Assembly: GCF_053078305.1 (NCBI RefSeq)
Contig: NZ_CP166879.1
DNA length: 64,000 bases
Strand: one strand, 5' to 3'
The notes below the pieces were generated by a model. The model did not search any database, had not been told where the DNA came from, and worked only from the letters and a program-made list of their open reading frames with translations. The stretch's first letter is position 1. Each line of letters starts with the position of its first letter. The position numbers and the translations under genes were made by a program. Below are positions 774 through 64,000 of this stretch, piece after piece.

Positions 774-4098
<3,325 letters not shown>

Positions 4099-28800: not shown

Positions 28801-28988
28801 CAGATCACATCAGGTTATGTTTCGTTTGTCATCAACCTCAAATTATCAACATAATTCATTTTATTTCAATAAGATAGATAAGTACACCTGAGAAAACTAT
28901 GCTCTCATCTCCTAAGAGTTGTTGCATTTTGTCATATGTTACAATATAACATTACACATCATATACAATGACTCTGGAGGAAACTGTT

Positions 28989-29639
28989 TTGGCGATTCGT
29001 CTTCACAAACTGGCTGTTGCTTTAGGTGTCTTTATTGTTAGCGCTCCTGCCTTTTCGCATGGTCATCACTCACACGGCAAACCCTTAACAGAGGTCGAAC
29101 AAAAAGCTGCTAATGGTGTTTTTGATGATGCCAATGTACAAAACCGAACGCTCAGTGACTGGGATGGAGTCTGGCAATCCGTTTATCCTTTACTGCAAAG
29201 TGGCAAACTTGACCCCGTCTTTCAGAAGAAAGCGGATGCAGATAAAACTAAAACATTTGCTGAAATTAAAGATTATTATCACAAAGGTTATGCAACAGAT
29301 ATCGAGATGATTGGCATTGAGGACGGCATTGTTGAATTCCATAGAAATAATGAAACAACATCCTGTAAATATGATTACGATGGATACAAAATACTCACCT
29401 ATAAATCAGGCAAGAAAGGCGTTCGTTACTTATTCGAATGTAAAGATCCTGAAAGCAAAGCCCCTAAATATATACAATTTAGCGATCATATAATTGCACC
29501 ACGAAAATCATCTCATTTTCACATTTTTATGGGTAATGATTCACAGCAATCTTTATTAAATGAAATGGAAAACTGGCCAACGTATTATCCATATCAGTTG
29601 AGTAGCGAAGAAGTGGTCGAGGAAATGATGTCTCATTGA
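28989..29639 (+). CDS. zinT: zinc/cadmium-binding periplasmic protein ZinT (YodA)
   Basis: ORF 28968..29639; probable TTG start at 28989 for 216 aa; signal peptide and His-rich HGHHSHG. Confidence 0.88.
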
Positions 29640-29981
29640 GTATTCTCATGATAACGCCTCGATGCCGCTTTAGTAAGTCATCATAACTGCCACTGGTCCA
29701 TCCACAAACGCCACTGAACGCAAGCTAGCTACAGACACGCTCATCACTATGACGTGTCTGTATATTAATAAGCTAACCCGCATTGAGTTAACCAATAACG
29801 GATTCCATACATAATACGGCCAACAGAGAAAGATACCTGTGCTCACGCCATTGCTTATATTGGCTGGTTACAATGTGCACTATCAATTTTTTAAATAACA
29901 AATTCTTAAAACCACATCTGTATAAGGAATTTTTAAGGTTCGTGGGATAGCTTGACTGTGAAAATCACAGGAGCTACAAAA

Positions 29982-30512
29982 ATGAACCGATTCTCAAAAA
30001 CTCAAATTTATTTACATTGGATAACGCTGCTTTTCGTTGCAATAACCTATGCCGCGATGGAACTCCGTGGCTGGTTTCCTAAAGGTAGTAGTACTTATCT
30101 GCTAATGCGAGAAACACATTACAATGCGGGTATATTCGTTTGGGTGTTAATGTTTTCACGCCTGATTATAAAACACCGTTATAGTGATCCTTCTATTGTG
30201 CCACCGCCACCTGCCTGGCAAATGAAAGCGGCTTCGCTAATGCACATCATGCTTTATATAACCTTCCTTGCACTTCCTCTGCTGGGGATTGCTTTGATGG
30301 CTTACAGTGGAAAATCGTGGAGTTTCCTTGGTTTCAATGTGTCTCCCTTTGTTACCCCAAACAGCGAAATTAAAGCACTGATAAAAAATATTCACGAAAC
30401 CTGGGCAAATATAGGCTACTTTTTAATCGCAGCTCACGCTGGCGCAGCACTCTTTCATCACTACATTCAGAAAGATAATACTCTGTTACGAATGATGCCT
30501 CGCCGCAAATAA
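29982..30512 (+). CDS. yodB: cytochrome b561 family protein YodB
   Basis: ORF 29952..30512; start at MNRFSKTQIYLHWITLLFVAITYAAM gives 176 aa. Confidence 0.88.
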   Translation: MNRFSKTQIYLHWITLLFVAITYAAMELRGWFPKGSSTYLLMRETHYNAGIFVWVLMFSRLIIKHRYSDPSIVPPPPAWQMKAASLMHIMLYITFLALPLLGIALMAYSGKSWSFLGFNVSPFVTPNSEIKALIKNIHETWANIGYFLIAAHAGAALFHHYIQKDNTLLRMMPRRK

Positions 30513-31081
30513 GTCGATCCCCTGACAAGGAAATGTGAACCATGGACATCAACGCGTCATAAATGTTTACGCAAGTGCACAATGCACCCTTTCCACTATC
30601 AACAAGGAGGAGCAGAAACTGTGTAAATCGTACAATGGTAAGACTTATCAAAAATACAGGTTAATTTTGGTATTTAAACCTTTTTTACTTGTTAGTATGA
30701 TACAAAGGCTTTCAAAAAAGCTGGGAAATTCAACAACTCTTGGAAATTATGGACTTTGTCCCGCGGCTTTAATCTGACGGCCGCGTTCCTTTTTTGACTC
30801 AATTATTGACCCCTTCTCTACGCAACTTCGGTTCCCACCACCAACTTTGCGGCAGTTTCATAGGATGAATGTCTAAAAGAATAATGGTGAGCGATAAGAA
30901 AACGACTGAATAACTGCACATTTTCGCTCGAAAGCTTCCTGTCAGATCCATAGCGAATCAAGTGCTGAATGTCACAGTATCGAACAGAAAACAGTGACGA
31001 TCTAACCCTTCAAGAATATTCTACGATTGTTCTGTTTAGGAAAAGCAAGGCGGGAAGTCGGGAGATAAGTCATTGATAAAG

Positions 31082-31143
31082 TGGCGGAGAGAGGGGGATT
31101 TGAACCCCCGGTAGAGTTGCCCCTACTCCGGTTTTCGAGACCG
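31082..31143 (-). other. 3' fragment of tRNA-Ser (serU-like), probable prophage attachment-site repeat
   Basis: Minus strand reads CGGTCTCGAAAACCGGAGTAGGGGCAACTCTACCGGGGGTTCAAATCCCCCTCTCTCCGCCA (anticodon arm to CCA); the flanking sequence cannot form the acceptor 5' strand or D-arm. Confidence 0.8.
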
Positions 31144-31352
31144 ATGATACCGAACCGTAAAATCAAAAGGTTATAAATTTTTCTTGGAATAAATGTCTTA
31201 AAAACATACACGCAAAATCAATAAATTACGCGAAATTTGAGAAGAATATTCCAAGCCTTCTTTGAGTTATTTTTAACCATCTTGCTGTTTTTCTTTCTGA
31301 TAAAATATTGCCTGATATCCCTTAACATTACTAATACTTGCGTAGTGAATGT

Positions 31353-31682
31353 ATGAACAATCCGAATCCATGCATGACGTGTGGTGCCTGTTGTGCATTT
31401 TTCCGCGTCTCTTTTTACTGGGCTGAAGCCGATGATGCTGGCGGTACTATTCCCGCCAGGCTCACTGAACAAATATCCCCTTTTCACCGATGCATGAGCG
31501 GTACCAATCAGAAAAACCCCCGATGTGTCGCTCTGGCGGGAACTCCGGGTAAAAACGCATATTGCTCTGTTTACAAAAACCGTCCGTCCACATGCCGGGA
31601 ATTCGCAATGTCCGGAGAAAATGGCATCGCGAATGATGCATGCAACCGCGCACGGGCAAAATACGGACTTCCGGAAATCTGA
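31353..31682 (+). CDS. YkgJ-family cysteine-cluster protein
   Basis: ORF 31338..31682; start at [23 protein letters not shown] gives 109 aa with CxxCxxCC; AT-rich upstream. Confidence 0.6.
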
Positions 31683-31844
31683 AAATTATCCATATCAACA
31701 GAGTGCTCCTGAAACAAGATCAGCATCACGTACAGAATTAACATTTCCGTGGCAGTATTCGTCCGGCATAGTGTATACCTTCACAATAATGACATAATCA
31801 ACGCAGTTCATGGGGGAGGTGATGGTCCCCCATCTTTTTGTCTG

Positions 31845-32516
31845 TTATTCCTGTGCCCAGCCAACCCTGTATGCCAGTATCTCATCCGCACTGGTCAGCT
31901 TTTCCAGCTCCTTCTTCATGGTGCGCTGCCGGACGTGGATTTCCATCCCTTTGGTGAACATCGCCTGCTCTGCCGCTTCACTCAGCGCTATAAGCTCTTC
32001 TGCTGTCACCCCCACATCATTGTTTTCCGCATCCGTCCAGAAAAACGCCTCCGGCAGTTTCCCCGCTTTCGCTGCCGCCACCGATGGCTCAAGACGCGTC
32101 TGCGTTGACTTCCCGTAGTCCCATTTACGCCCATTGTGCTCAAACGTGTAGTTCGCCGCTTCCATCGCATTACGCCAGGCGTTAATTTCATCGCCCTTCA
32201 TCCCTCGCGCTTTCTCCGCGGTCAGCAGGTCCGTGATTTTCTCCCCGTCAAAACCCCAGCGCCCCGAGATGTCAGCTTTGCGGTTTTCTTCCGTATCCGC
32301 CACCTCCACCACACTCTGGCCCACTGGCCACAGAACTGATGCCACCCTGCTGATGCCGGTAATGACTCCGGCACTGTTATAAACCACCTTCAGCGTCTCT
32401 GCTGAAAATAACGACTGACACTCATACCAGTCCTGACCATCCTCTGATTTCAGGTACATCGCACCCGGCACATCCGGATTTTCCGGCGTGTATTGTCTGA
32501 AATTCTTTATGTGCAT
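31845..32516 (-). CDS. tfa: tail fiber assembly protein (Tfa-like)
   Basis: 223-aa ORF MHIKNFRQYTPE...WYECQSLFSAETLKVVYNSAGVITGIS...VVEV...RKADISGRWGF, typical Tfa N-terminal pattern; immediately downstream of stf. Confidence 0.8.
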   Translation of the reverse strand: MHIKNFRQYTPENPDVPGAMYLKSEDGQDWYECQSLFSAETLKVVYNSAGVITGISRVASVLWPVGQSVVEVADTEENRKADISGRWGFDGEKITDLLTAEKARGMKGDEINAWRNAMEAANYTFEHNGRKWDYGKSTQTRLEPSVAAAKAGKLPEAFFWTDAENNDVGVTAEELIALSEAAEQAMFTKGMEIHVRQRTMKKELEKLTSADEILAYRVGWAQE

Positions 32517-32557
32517 CTGTAAGTCCTCCCGGTTACATGTCTGAAAGATGATGCGCT

Positions 32558-34285
32558 TTATAATGGAAAATACTCAAACCCCGAAGCTCCTGACGACACA
32601 TACTCACCCACGCTGACTGTACGCCACTGAGAACCATCAAATGTCACCTGAAGCGGCCTGTAAGATACCCTGTCAATAAGGGTTTTGTTTCCGTCGTTGT
32701 AACCGCCAATCCCCGTAATCATTGCACCAATATCCAAATCCACTGCCCATGTAGTGCTGTCTGTTTGCGGCGCATAAGTCTGTTTATTACCCAGCCTGAT
32801 ACCCACAACCCGGCTCTTCCCGTCTGATGCCCCGGGCGGCCCCATCGGCCCGGTTTCTCCACGCTCACCTCTGGGACCGGGGTCTCCTTTCTCCCCTTTC
32901 GGTCCCTGCGCTCCCCGCGGACCAGCGGGGCCTGTTGCTCCCGTTTCACCTTTCGGACCCTGTGCTCCGGGGTCGCCTTTCTCTCCTTTCGGACCGGGAA
33001 CACCACCTCCTGCTGCAGCCTCTTCTGCCTTTGTTTTCGCTTCATTTGCCACATCCATTGCCGCCTTCACGGCCTTCGGCGTGGCTGCCTTTGTTTCGTC
33101 ATTACTGCCAGTATCACTGCTTAACTGCACCACACCTTTCTGCGTCGTGCTGGCATCCCGCTGGCTGACCGTATCCGGTTTGTTTTTTGTGCTGTAATCC
33201 ACCCGCCAGTGGAAATACCGTGTGTCGCCGTAAACCGTACAGGTACAGACCGTGCCATTAATAAACCCCGTTGCACCGTATTCGCCAATGGTGACCCGGA
33301 CTATGGCAGCCTCATACGTTCCCATCACCTCAATGACACAGCCACCCAGATTGAGTTTTCCCGGTCCGACATCCGTGATGACTTTATTCATTGACGCAAG
33401 CAGTGATGCCTTCATCATCCAGTAAGGCTGGTCAAATGCCCCTTTTTCTTTCAGCCAGGCAACAAACTCGCGTGTTTTCCATTCACCGGCCCCCGTATGA
33501 ATGTCCCGCCCGTATACTCTGGCTGCTCCCACGGTGTTCAGAAACTTCACCTTATCCGGGATATCGTCACCGTTTTTCGCTTTCTCCAGGCATCCGTCCG
33601 CTTTGTCCATTGCCGCTTTCACCGCTTTCGGGGTGGCTGCCTTCGTTTCATCATCACTGTCCGTTGCGCTGCTTAACTGCACAATTCCCTTCTGTGCCGT
33701 CGTCGCATCCGGCCCTCCCGGCTCGCCTTTTTCGCCCTTCTCTCCCCGTTCACCTTTCACACCCTGAAGCCCCTGTGGTCCTGTCTCACCACGCTCACCC
33801 TTTGGCCCCCGCTCGCCGGTATCGCCTTTTGGCCCGGGAATACCCTGCGGCCCGGTGTCCCCCTTATCCCCCTTCGGTCCCCGTGCATTCTCTGCCCGTT
33901 TTTTTGCCTCCTCCGCACTGGCTGCGGAGGCTTCCGCACGTTTCAGGATTTCCGCTGCCACCGCTTCCAGCTCTGCAAGGGCTTTCGGGTAATACTGTGC
34001 GTCTTCCAGGTCCATCAGAAATTTATTCAGCGTTCCCGGTGCAGAATCCGCCTTCACCAGAATGTCACCCACATATGACGGCGCGTACCCTTCCGTGTTC
34101 AGCGTCACCCGGTACAACCCCGGCTCAACATCCATACTGTAACTGCCGGTTTCCCCCGGCAGACCATACGCCACCGTGGTGACAATCACCGTCTCCGTTG
34201 TGCGTCGCGCTTTCAGCTCTATCGTGCATCCCGGTACCGCTTTTCCCGTACCATCCTTCAGCACACCCGATATTCTGACTGTCAT
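32558..34285 (-). CDS. stf: side tail fiber protein with collagen-like Gly-X-Y tracts
   Basis: 575-aa ORF; N-terminus [28 protein letters not shown] resembles lambda Stf; two [17 protein letters not shown] tracts and two [10 protein letters not shown]...[15 protein letters not shown] motifs. Confidence 0.85.
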
Positions 34286-34427: not shown

Positions 34428-34568
34428 TTACTGCTTACACTGTAAGAACGCCGCAATCTCCGCGCCCGCTATCCGGAACCGGAACTCGCACAGTGAACTG
34501 TGGGTGATCCAGATAATGAGCACTACCGTGATACAAATCACGGTGGTTTTTAACGGTTTTTGCGACAT
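34428..34568 (-). CDS. Hok/Gef-family type I toxin-like small membrane protein
   Basis: 46-aa ORF below the track cutoff: MSQKPLKTTVICITVVLIIWITHSSLCEFRFRIAGAEIAAFLQCKQ; preceded by AAGGAG; TM helix plus LCExRxR...E[IV]AAF pattern. Confidence 0.55.
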   Translation of the reverse strand: MSQKPLKTTVICITVVLIIWITHSSLCEFRFRIAGAEIAAFLQCKQ

Positions 34569-60969: not shown

Positions 60970-62937
60970 TCATGCCGCGGCGTCCGCGTTGTTCACTTCC
61001 ACCTTCACACTGTCAATCAGCAGCGTATATGTCGCCGCCTTTGATATGCCTGTCAGTTGCAGTTTGTCCGCCGCCCCTGATGCCGGAGATTTCACCAGTG
61101 TGAACGGTGTACCCCGTTTCTCATCCAGTACCGGCGTCACCTGAATGCTGTTGTTTCCGGCAAACTCAAAAGCCAGTGTGTGCCATCCGTTATCAAAGAC
61201 CCCGAACGTATCCAGCTTCGCATTCTGCTTCTTGTGGTACATCGCGTTCAGGTTCGTCGCATCCGTCTGCAGGAAGAAGGACATCAGCATGTCGTTGCCT
61301 TCCTCTGCCAGCGTCACTCCCTCCGGCAGGGACGACAACTGCCAGTAAATACCCAGGGCAAACTGATTCGGCACCAGTGCGCCCGGCACCTTAAACCGCA
61401 CGCTCACACGTCCGCCTTTCTTCAGCAACTCTGCCCCCTTCCCGGCGGCATCATGCTCCAGAAACCAGATGTGGCTTTCCGGTTTGTTCAGTTGCAGGGC
61501 CTTACCACCGGTGGCACCCTCATCACTGACCACGGCCTCAGCGATGTTTTTATCAACACTGTCTCCGCTCGCCGGTTTGTGATAATAGCGCCAGCCCTGT
61601 GATGCCAGGTCTTCACCGGACGCCAGCAGACTCATCAGGGTTCGGTTACTGACCGGGGCTTCCGGCTCTCTCTCCGGGCCTTCACCGGAAGGTCCGGTGG
61701 GCTTCACCGTATCAGGCTGTTTTCCGGTAATGAATTCAGCGGTTCTCCCGGCATGCACCAGAATCGCCGTTGCCAGACGGTCGGAAATAATCCCACGGCG
61801 AGCCCATGAACTGAAATGGCTGGCCCTGTCCACAGATGTCCAGGTCTTCTGGTCATTACGCCACTTTGAACCGTAATAACCGACGGCTTCCAGGTCCGGG
61901 TCTTCTGCCGGGTCATTGGTCTGCACATTCGCACCATTCTCATCCGTCATTAACGGTACAAAGAAAATGTTCTGCGACTCCTTACCCTTATACCCTCCGT
62001 ATACTGATGCATACCCTTCCGCATGACGCTGCTTCCAGAAATACGTTGTGTCCCCGCAAATCCACGGTACCGCTGATGCGCTGCCTCCTGTGCTCTGTGA
62101 TGCCTGACCGGCAAGCTCCGTTCTGAACTGATTCACCATCGCACTAAACAGCCCCGGATGCTGCGCATGCGTCCCCACTGCCGCATCACCTTCTCCCTGC
62201 ATCCACACCACCGCAAGCAGACGGTTTTTCGGGTTCTTCGCCAGTGCGGCTTTAGTCCGGCTCACCAAATCCTGATACAGCGGCTTACCCACACCCCAGC
62301 GCAGTGAATTTTCCGATGCACCGGCTGATTCGTTGTATGTGCCGTCTGCACCCGTTGTGAATGCCGAAGCACCACGGCAGCACGGAACCAGCAGAATGCC
62401 CGCATTCGCCGGTATAAACGGCAGCAGTTTTTTGGCGATATGCAGCCCCTGCCCCACGGTTCCGTACTGCCCCTTTGACAGGTCCGCTTTCGGATGGTTA
62501 AGACGGCTCATGTCCTGCACATCATGCAGACAATGGTCCGCCGGAATAATGTCGTTATACTTACAGGCGGCACCGCCCGGTGTCACCGTACTGCGACGCG
62601 CCAGCTGCTTAATACGCGGGTCCGGACGGTCATATGTCTCCGGCAGCGGAAGGCCTTCACCATACGACATGCCGTTTGACTGCCCTGCCAGAACCACAAC
62701 AAAGTAATACTCCGGGTCGCTGGTGGCGCTGATTACTGTGCCTTCTCCATCCGACGGCTTCACCACCACAGGTGTGGTGACATCACCTTCCGCCGCAATG
62801 GCCTGCATCAGGGTATAAGGCGTGATGGCCACCGGGCTGCCAAATGGCTGCCACCCCTCCTTCAGTTTTTGAGTCAGTCGCTCCGCAAGGTCTGACGGCG
62901 ACGCCGCCCTGACCACGTCATAGTGTTTAAATGCCAT
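60970..62937 (-). CDS. prophage sialate O-acetylesterase (NanS-p-like)
   Basis: 655-aa ORF: N-terminal domain MAFKHYDVVRAASPSDLAERLTQKLKEGWQPFG (recalled as DUF1737-like), catalytic motif VVLAGQSNGMSYGEG, C-terminal beta-rich domain; upstream of the lysis cassette. Confidence 0.85.
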   Translation of the reverse strand: MAFKHYDVVRAASPSDLAERLTQKLKEGWQPFGSPVAITPYTLMQAIAAEGDVTTPVVVKPSDGEGTVISATSDPEYYFVVVLAGQSNGMSYGEGLPLPETYDRPDPRIKQLARRSTVTPGGAACKYNDIIPADHCLHDVQDMSRLNHPKADLSKGQYGTVGQGLHIAKKLLPFIPANAGILLVPCCRGASAFTTGADGTYNESAGASENSLRWGVGKPLYQDLVSRTKAALAKNPKNRLLAVVWMQGEGDAAVGTHAQHPGLFSAMVNQFRTELAGQASQSTGGSASAVPWICGDTTYFWKQRHAEGYASVYGGYKGKESQNIFFVPLMTDENGANVQTNDPAEDPDLEAVGYYGSKWRNDQKTWTSVDRASHFSSWARRGIISDRLATAILVHAGRTAEFITGKQPDTVKPTGPSGEGPEREPEAPVSNRTLMSLLASGEDLASQGWRYYHKPASGDSVDKNIAEAVVSDEGATGGKALQLNKPESHIWFLEHDAAGKGAELLKKGGRVSVRFKVPGALVPNQFALGIYWQLSSLPEGVTLAEEGNDMLMSFFLQTDATNLNAMYHKKQNAKLDTFGVFDNGWHTLAFEFAGNNSIQVTPVLDEKRGTPFTLVKSPASGAADKLQLTGISKAATYTLLIDSVKVEVNNADAAA

Positions 62938-63132
62938 GAATCCTCCCGGTCGGGATAATGTTGTGAGTCAGATAAGGGGCGGGCTGAAGTCCGGAAGTTA
63001 CAGGACAATGACAGAAGGAAGACTACAGCCCGCAATACGAAAAAGGCCGCGCAGTTGCGCAGAGTGATTACTGTCGGGTATTATTCGCCAGCTGAAAAAT
63101 TGATTACTTCACGTTTTGTTGTTTATTCCTTG

Positions 63133-63833
63133 CTGCCCGCATCTCACCATGCGGGCTTTTTTTATCCATAAGAAAGCCCCTCCGGAGAGGGGCTGGAGTA
63201 GCGCTATGTACCGTTCATTGCATGATGCCGGGTGCCTCCCGGTGAGTTCAGCCCGGTGCCACCGAACCCGCGTCATTCTCGCTAACGATCATCAGAGACC
63301 ATACCGTACACCAGCCGCCCCTCCGCACAGGGGGATTCATCATGCAGAAATTTTTTAACAAATTCTCAGTCGGGAAGACAACCTTCAACTGACTGAATTG
63401 TGAGCAACATAGCATTTAACGGGGAACCTGTTTTCTGCAGTAAAAAGGCCCACCGGAGCGGACGGGCCTGGAAGGATAGCGGTCATGTGATGCCGGTTTC
63501 CCGGTAACTCAGCACCGGTATCTGAGTCAACGTTTTCTCTACTGGGTCATTTCCGATACGCCCTGCCTGCTGACAGGCTTTCATCACATCTGAAAATATA
63601 GCACCCTGACTGATACTGTAGTACCCAAGGTTCCAGAAACTGTGATGTATCCGGCACAGAAAAGCCCCTCCGGAGAGGGGCTGACGCTGCGTATCTGTAT
63701 CATCATGCGCATGGTGCCGGGTGCCTCCCGGTGAGTTCAGTATCAGCACCTGAACCCGCACAGAAAGGATAAGGGATGTAACCAAACACCTGTCGCTGAT
63801 ATGCCCCTCCGCTCAGGGGGATTCACCATGCCA
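63133..63833. repeat. imperfect direct repeat (two copies, period about 488 bp) of a hairpin-rich element upstream of the esterase gene
   Basis: Shared blocks gcccctccggagaggggc (63176 / 63664), ccgggtgcctcccggtgagttcag (63228 / 63716), cagggggattca(t/c)catgc (63319 / 63806); additional hairpin plus T7 at 63133-63158. Confidence 0.8.
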
Positions 63834-64000
63834 GTTTCTTTTAACAAACTCCCCGCAAATCAGACAACTGTCAACCGTCTGAATTGTGAGACATTTAAAA
63901 TTTTCGGGGCAACAGGAAGACAATCATCACGACACCGGCAACCAGCGACCGGCACCAGATTTAACGTATGTGCACACAACCTGAACCGGCATCAAAAAAC

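Follow-up and report, generated by a model that had tools for sequence, protein, structure and literature searches.

Gene content and attachment site

The interval 31144–31844 of the window (the whole 64,000-nt stretch of DNA that was analysed) extends exactly from a tRNA fragment to the stop codon of a phage tail-fibre assembly gene. The ORF listing gives one credible gene within it, encoding 109 aa on the plus strand (Table 1), and the remaining ORFs are without any support. An in-frame TTG at 31338 would lengthen the product to 114 aa if it were used, and ATG is the start in every homologue. In a profile search, the protein matched Pfam PF03692 (CxxCxxCC, UPF0153, "putative zinc- or iron-chelating domain") across positions 1–85 of 85 (E = 1.8e-12, 48.2 bits), above the curated gathering cut-off of 23 bits. 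PF03692 was the only Pfam match at E ≤ 10, with no DUF3109; no NCBIfam model matched at E ≤ 0.01, and PHROGs and PADLOC gave no match. The identical protein is named "YkgJ family cysteine cluster protein" in RefSeq. All eight cysteines of the family (C7, C10, C13, C14, C58, C71, C81 and C97), whose columns are invariant or at least 90% conserved among 98 homologues, are present in the prophage protein, and an AF2 model has a compact, confident fold (pLDDT 94); our search found no solved structure or structural relative. The first-pass annotation of a 109-aa YkgJ-family CxxCxxCC gene on the plus strand is therefore borne out by the profile search and the ORF coordinates, as is its orientation opposite to the phage genes, since the neighbouring phage genes all lie on the minus strand.

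The flank left of the attachment site is host DNA with 99.9% identity to E. coli chromosomes, and to the right lies a lambdoid prophage of roughly 55 kb integrated in serU, with the gene at its tip. The tail-fibre assembly gene tfa/DUF4376 converges on the ykgJ paralogue and occupies the place to its right in every related prophage (serU, serT, potC and yecE). Further right, the genes for J, tape measure, portal, capsid-protease, TerL, lysozyme and a SASA esterase are all encoded on the minus strand. An OmpC-like porin gene sits in the tail module, with tape-measure and minor-tail genes on one side and the L/K/I genes on the other, and is a second cargo gene that resembles a host gene, at an unusual location; the related KY171 prophage has the same gene, annotated ompC. 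NanS-p-like esterase genes are typical downstream of stx in Stx phages, and no stx-like ORF was found in the 1 kb upstream of the esterase gene (62938–64000, to the window end).

The host-side half of the attachment site is a displaced 3′ part of serU, identical to the intact serU of a prophage-free strain (L011) up to 31143 and divergent beyond it. Because only 62 nt of serU are present, ARAGORN called no complete tRNA within the window, and the att element was therefore defined by comparison with the empty site; Rfam searches of 30400–32600 returned sub-threshold matches to the tRNA fragment only. In KY171 (JNEC-KY171), the related prophage is 54.8 kb long and ends at its far side with an intact tRNA-Ser and a tyrosine integrase gene, and its 78-bp att repeat (91% identity) corresponds to 31066–31143 of the window. 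Given this layout, and as a search within the window found no second att copy, the window prophage should run past base 64000, with the partner att located there. The att repeat previously noted beside the gene is thus real as the serU fragment, but it is one half of a pair whose partner lies outside the window. In one draft genome (L075, GCA_032611835.1, 1–5729), a different integrative element carrying AlpA, H-NS-like and RepL-like genes precedes the junction instead of yodB. The left context switches exactly at 31082, where the tRNA fragment starts, pointing to tandem occupancy of serU.

The 209 bp before the ATG (31144–31352) have a GC content of 29.2%, where the CDS has 51.2% and the window's prophage portion 54.6%, confirming the AT-rich upstream region that had been noticed. 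Judged by its relatives, this AT-rich DNA is the serU attP arm, not a ykgJ promoter. The arm (31144–31344) is kept in the serU-type prophages L001, L004 and L005 and in the viral contigs L049, L063 and L065, where it comes after the integrase gene, and it has no similarity to the K-12 ecpE–ykgJ intergenic region. Its first part (31144–31262) is also common to the free phage ev099, which lacks ykgJ and carries other cargo instead. The AT-rich DNA as a hint of a promoter is consequently not borne out, as the arm occurs in the ykgJ-less ev099 and contains no convincing sigma-70 promoter. The ev099 genome (L009, 2757–3119) aligns with window positions 30900–31262 at 94% over the whole 363-bp match; besides the tRNA 3′ part, its attP region includes about 180 bp homologous to host DNA downstream of serU, so that the phage att region itself looks host-derived. 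An IS and an AraC-family regulator gene lie between int and attP in ev099.

In promoter scans, sigma-70-like sites upstream of the gene were no more frequent than in shuffled sequence and none was well placed, and manual inspection found no −35/−10 pair with proper spacing near the ATG. Weak sites within the att arm could drive transcription, or it could reach the gene by read-through from the host side; a scan found no terminator-like site between yodB and the ykgJ paralogue. The terminator-like hairpin 3′ of the gene folds at −16.2 kcal/mol (z = −1.4), which is not exceptional by energy alone. The hairpin and its T-run are kept in L001–L003, and strain STEC1585 has a different hairpin and T-run at the same place.

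Table 1. Features of the window in and around the ykgJ paralogue
Feature	Position	Strand	Evidence or remark
zinT	28968–29639		Left host flank
yodB, cytochrome b561 gene	29952–30512		Left host flank
Displaced 3′ 62 nt of tRNA-Ser(CGA) serU; left prophage junction	31082–31143	−	Identity to intact serU
AT-rich serU attP phage arm, in place of the native ykgJ promoter region	31144–31344	.	Conserved in serU-type prophages
Last 8 nt of ykgJ-type leader (GTGAAT..); weak native Shine-Dalgarno-like GTGA kept	31345–31352	+	Homology starts at L006 3001
ykgJ paralogue, prophage-borne	31353–31682	+	PF03692; 88% identity to K-12 YkgJ; eight Cys; AF2 pLDDT 94
Putative gene-conversion patch	31445–31517 (CDS nt 93–165, minimum); 31434–31526 (nt 82–174, maximum)	+	Identical to K-12 ykgJ
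Terminator-like hairpin (8-bp G/C-rich stem) then CTTTTTGT, 3′ of ykgJ paralogue, just before tfa stop codon	31810–31842	+	Scan
tfa/DUF4376 tail-fibre assembly gene	31845–32516	−	Pfam DUF4376, E = 7e-17; weak Caudo_TAP; PHROG tail-fibre families
Tail fibre with collagen repeats	32558–34285	−	
46-aa ORF (MSQKPLKTTVICITVVLIIWITHSSLCEFRF...), between J and tail-fibre gene	34428–34568	−	Counterpart of Hok/Gef-family toxin in related prophages
OmpC-like general porin, full length	41193–42347	−	Pfam Porin_1, E = 5.9e-144
SASA/NanS-p-like carbohydrate esterase	60970–62937	−	DUF1737 + SASA + DUF6645

Occurrence in prophages and at the empty serU site

Comparison with occupied and empty loci shows the gene to belong to the prophage and not to a host locus. 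The prophage-free strain ECNB21-M121, whose flank is 99.9% identical, has the order zinT-yodB-serU-mtfA-asnT with no gene in between, and since the gene is missing from such prophage-free strains, it is prophage cargo. Presence of the gene here in prophage-free strains had been named as the observation that would speak for a host origin; the check found it absent from the empty serU locus. At least 80% of the interval 31144–31844 is held by 3 of 5,426 complete E. coli genomes, and roughly 5,000 other matches are the chromosomal ykgJ at the ecp locus, with 84–87% identity over the coding region only. The phage-specific 3′ half with the downstream spacer was found in 177 genomes (at ≥80% coverage in 108 of 5,426), mostly STEC and always on the chromosome. 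The identical protein is encoded on 42 public E. coli contigs; all eight places examined share the junction with 99.2–99.6% DNA identity, and the same prophage junction occurs in 20 or more draft genomes.

Derivation from chromosomal ykgJ and capture by phages

The prophage protein is 88% identical to K-12 YkgJ (b0288, beside ecpE), with the same start, the same length of 109 aa and the same eight cysteines. In sensitive BLASTN searches, similarity to the K-12 locus is confined to 31345–31669, i.e., from −8 to codon 106, and neither the ecpE–ykgJ intergenic sequence nor the K-12 sequence downstream of ykgJ was found anywhere in the window. The alignments show, at the DNA level, that the gene derives from the chromosomal ecpE–ykgJ segment. 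The copy differs from its chromosomal counterpart in its location, a serU prophage instead of the ecp locus, in the replacement of the native promoter and intergenic region, and in its C-terminus, where the last 3–4 codons are replaced (LPEI instead of LTPL). The expectation of conversion-type cargo thus holds as far as the gene is cargo at the att tip, but the cargo is not foreign, being a copy of the host core gene ykgJ. As a copy of the host's own gene, it gives the lysogen a duplicate, not a new function.

Related phages retain a longer part of the source. In L021, L040 and L045, positions 2815–3321 of the K-12 record (L006) are contiguous and comprise 193 bp of intergenic DNA and the CDS, and the contiguous block of other phages, from K-12 −193 to codon 106, has the same end points. 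In serU-type phages, the part of the block upstream of −8 is replaced by the serU attP arm. The left end at 2815 and the right end at about 3324 recur across phages with different integrases, a pattern that points to a single ancestral capture, with deletions and module exchange afterwards. Judging from the shared boundaries only, ykgJ may have entered lambdoid phages by an imprecise excision, resembling specialised transduction, beside an attB-like region at ecpE–ykgJ. It would then have spread with the tail-fibre module among phages of different integrases (serU, serT, potC, yecE and yehV).

Pieces of the region are held by 204 deposited phage genomes, mostly of Stx phages, and the best-matching phage records cover 2815–3121, which is the intergenic part and the first 114 nt of the CDS. 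In the Stx1 phage VT1-Sakai (AP000400; Sp15), the piece carries the annotation H0002, "similar to E. coli K12 YkgJ", and lies downstream of a LexA-box dinI. According to Nakamura et al. 2021 (PMC8112680), DNA derived from ykgJ/ecpE is the origin of the 96-bp "attB-in-PP_2" used by phages that integrate into prophages. Prophage break points would place this attB at about L006 2844–2939, in the intergenic part. The window copy shares with H0002 and the attB-in-PP_2 block both the ecpE–ykgJ origin and the position between att and the tail-fibre genes. In contrast to those phages, in which 193 bp of intergenic DNA and no more than the first 114 bp of the CDS follow the LexA-box dinI, it has the whole CDS and no intergenic DNA. 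With no K-12 similarity upstream of −8, attB-in-PP_2 should be absent from the window, given the 96-bp location suggested by the break points. Recurring fragments of K-12 3001–3098 had raised the first ~96 nt of the CDS as a candidate for attB-in-PP_2. This is less likely, as the break points cluster at query position 330 (~L006 2943) and PMC8112680 describes the site as intergenic. The gene itself is already annotated in public genomes, and truncated relatives are known from VT1-Sakai and from Nakamura et al.; the reconstruction of the capture block and the chimeric allele described below are new, modest details.

A chimeric allele

Site-by-site alignment and segment identities show the window allele to be a chimera of phage-type and K-12-type segments. 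CDS nt 1–81 have the variants of serU-type phages. Nucleotides 93–165 have the K-12 ykgJ state at all 17 sites that separate K-12 from phage copies, and nt 175–330 are again phage-type, with 92–99% identity to phage copies and only 60–77% to K-12. The K-12-type patch of 73–93 nt was seen in none of 15 other copies examined. The simplest explanation would be short-patch gene conversion with a chromosomal ykgJ allele of E. coli as donor, probably the resident chromosomal ykgJ, a locus outside the window. Site-specific recombination as the source of the chimera was ruled out, because the patch is internal to the CDS with phage-type sequence on both sides.

The first ~90 nt of the CDS (31353–31442) have 93–100% DNA identity between K-12 and phage types, compared with 60–85% in the rest of the gene, and more divergent copies on viral contigs have 85–89% identity over the first 55 nt. 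Break points of truncation and recombination cluster at the end of this conserved 5′ part, at nt 66 and about nt 93. The low codon degeneracy of Cys, Phe, Met and Trp explains the 5′ conservation in part, and perhaps not wholly.

The cargo slot between att and the tail-fibre assembly gene

In all prophages compared, ykgJ or its remains lie between att and the DUF4376 tail-fibre assembly gene. These include the serU prophages of the window, KY171, STEC1585 and M1, the serT prophages (beside hyaA) of 04-00955 and RM10466, the potB/potC prophage of HCP4S3_I4, the yecE prophage of an O104:H4-like strain, and the yehV prophage VT1-Sakai. Serving as a test for cargo (a moron), the gene is absent from the empty serU site and adjoins tfa/DUF4376 in the serU, serT, potC and yecE prophages. 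Other genes occupy the same slot in relatives. Viral contigs of the serU type have the order integrase, attP arm, first 93 nt of ykgJ, NleF-like and OspG/NleH-like effector genes, and tail fibre; potC-type Stx1a phages have the first 66 nt of ykgJ followed by NleG genes; P-EibE has the immunoglobulin-binding gene eibE between tfa and a 3′ ykgJ remnant; and dinI is another gene found there. NleF-like, OspG/NleH-like and NleG genes were seen in the slot of L049, L058 and L065. The suggestion that the att tip is a cargo position agrees with this comparison, and because effector and eib genes stand at the same place, the slot corresponds to an exchangeable effector locus (EEL) of lambdoid phages. 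The ykgJ copy is an older resident of the slot that has often been overwritten by effector or eib genes. The window slot has no type III effector gene, and the ykgJ paralogue is alone in it.

The gene resembles known morons and EEL genes (lom, bor, eib and nleF/G/H) in its variable slot between tail-fibre genes and att, its orientation opposite to the late genes and its own terminator-like hairpin. Unlike them, it duplicates a core gene of housekeeping type and encodes no secreted or surface virulence factor, no promoter of its own was found, and its GC content of 51% is not atypical. The earlier observation of a cargo gene at this prophage tip is real, and a prophage copy of ykgJ is ordinary, host-derived cargo that need not surprise.

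Selection and decay of the phage copies

Intact phage copies have an excess of synonymous changes. Most pairs have a pN/pS of 0.06–0.26 with binomial P from 1e-3 to 1e-9, including pairs of serU-type copies, none of which has the native promoter; in a few pairs of close relatives the values are 0.4–0.5 and not significant. Compared with K-12, the phage copies have a pN/pS of 0.12–0.14, with nearly saturated synonymous sites in the 3′ half. Decay is also widespread. The copy of strain M1 has Cys-to-Tyr changes and a frameshift, that of the O104:H4-like strain (L013) is frameshifted, and the 53 IMG/VR contigs with ykgJ-like sequence comprise about 19 with an intact copy, 14 with a common frameshift and about 19 with fragments. 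As roughly two thirds of the viral contigs are frameshifted or truncated, any benefit should be weak or conditional. The substitution patterns thus point to purifying selection on intact phage copies that is real, but weak or conditional, and part of the low pN/pS may have come in with chromosomal alleles through recombination, without being a sign of selection in the phage. In strain A10 (L068, 5008–5195), the chromosomal ykgJ is a frameshifted or deleted pseudogene; the core copy is therefore dispensable in at least one E. coli strain.

Function and competing explanations

The identity and origin of the phage ykgJ copy are well supported, and its activity is approached here through the family. 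In FliB, a CX4CX3CC motif ligates a [4Fe-4S] cluster that is sensitive to oxygen and indispensable to SAM-dependent lysine methylation (PMC8598068). The phage protein DpdM, a DUF3109 preQ1 methyltransferase, is a stated homologue of E. coli YkgJ (PMC10516641). A ykgJ deletion mutant shows filamentation in maturing biofilms (PMC8743551), the only ykgJ phenotype that our literature search found, and a YkgJ-family protein is variably abundant in clinical isolates (PMC8203672). The window protein shares with FliB (the Salmonella flagellin lysine N-methyltransferase) and DpdM a Cys-rich N-terminal motif of the same type, a kinship known here from Pfam and papers only. It differs from FliB in its spacing, C-x2-C-x2-CC, and from both enzymes in consisting of the Cys-cluster module only, a single domain of 109 aa. 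FliB is much larger than YkgJ, at about 400 aa.

We consider it reasonably probable that the gene is an intact, prophage-borne duplicate of ykgJ residing in the cargo slot between att and tfa of a serU lambdoid prophage. The phage protein would then do what host YkgJ does, as a small cytoplasmic cysteine-cluster protein. By analogy with FliB, the CxxCxxCC motif and the four further cysteines would ligate an Fe-S cluster (or Zn), so that a small Fe-S (or Zn) protein with the activity of host YkgJ is what the family would lead one to expect. The lysogen would have a second, differently regulated dose of YkgJ, dispensable for the phage.

The evidence of decay also fits a promoter-less relic of an old host-gene capture, a silent passenger without function for phage or lysogen that is still intact and heading to decay. 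The native upstream region has been exchanged for the attP arm with no convincing promoter found, and broken copies are common (M1, L013, and the 14 frameshifted and 19 fragmentary viral contigs). Stubs of 66–93 nt lie beside effector genes, and in some strains even the chromosomal ykgJ has become a pseudogene. Such a relic would be hard to reconcile with an intact ORF that retains all eight conserved cysteines, a conserved dedicated terminator-like hairpin, and an allele stable over 40 or more public contigs. The significant synonymous excess among intact copies, including the serU-type copies without native promoter, also disagrees with it, and on balance we regard this explanation as doubtful. 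A role of the DNA itself, either as a secondary attachment site (attB-in-prophage) or as a homology anchor for recombination, appears extremely improbable. It would draw on the 96-bp ecpE–ykgJ-derived attB described in PMC8112680 and on the recombination of the window copy with a chromosomal-type allele. However, that attB is most likely intergenic (L006 2844–2939), homology in the window begins only at L006 3001, and a DNA-level role would not yield a synonymous excess.

Another alternative to a plain duplicate of ykgJ is an adaptive enzyme. The protein would be a SAM-dependent Fe-S amine methyltransferase resembling FliB and DpdM, or the redox partner of one, and would act in lysogenic conversion or anti-defence on putative targets such as a host surface protein, tRNA or DNA. 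The only characterised relatives with the CxxCxxCC fold are N-methyltransferases, FliB (PMC8598068) and DpdM (PMC10516641), the slot otherwise holds virulence cargo, and the gene appears to be under purifying selection. Yet a 109-aa protein matching an 85-position profile amounts to little beyond the Fe-S module, and the region of similarity with DpdM is undefined in PMC10516641. The 88% identity to host YkgJ leaves no phage-specific innovation, there is no PHROGs or PADLOC match and no adjacent partner gene, and the gene is often lost from related phages; we judge the enzyme improbable. Highly improbable, too, is the notion that phage YkgJ is a selected conversion factor in the form of a minimal Fe-S FliB/DpdM-like modifier or redox partner. 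If it were one, the extra, differently regulated copy would alter cell division or biofilm behaviour or modify a host or phage macromolecule, and continuing gene conversion with the chromosomal copy would let prophages reshape a core gene, and the core gene reshape prophages.

Should the copy of ykgJ be functional, a lysogen would have two differently controlled YkgJ genes, and because YkgJ, a putative Fe-S or Zn protein, is conserved and its loss causes filamentation in biofilms (PMC8743551), the phage copy offers a natural way into its study. What the locus offers on firmer ground is evolutionary, as it represents a core host gene captured into the slot where lambdoid phages of the STEC type exchange effectors. 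It documents the spread of ykgJ over five or more integration specificities and the repeated erosion of the gene where effector and eib genes have inserted, together with a probable recent gene conversion, over a short patch, of a prophage gene with its paralogue on the chromosome. The present understanding of prophage biology is unchanged by these results.

The source region of the captured block also appears in an experimental-evolution context. In a table of PMC7952611, citing Khare and Tavazoie 2020, mutations in ykgJ/ecpE and yecD recur together in 4 of 8 E. coli lines evolved for tolerance of ampicillin plus ciprofloxacin. Both loci (yecD adjoins yecE) are near source sequences of prophage attB sites, and their co-recurrence may reflect coincidence or shared ancestry of the lines.
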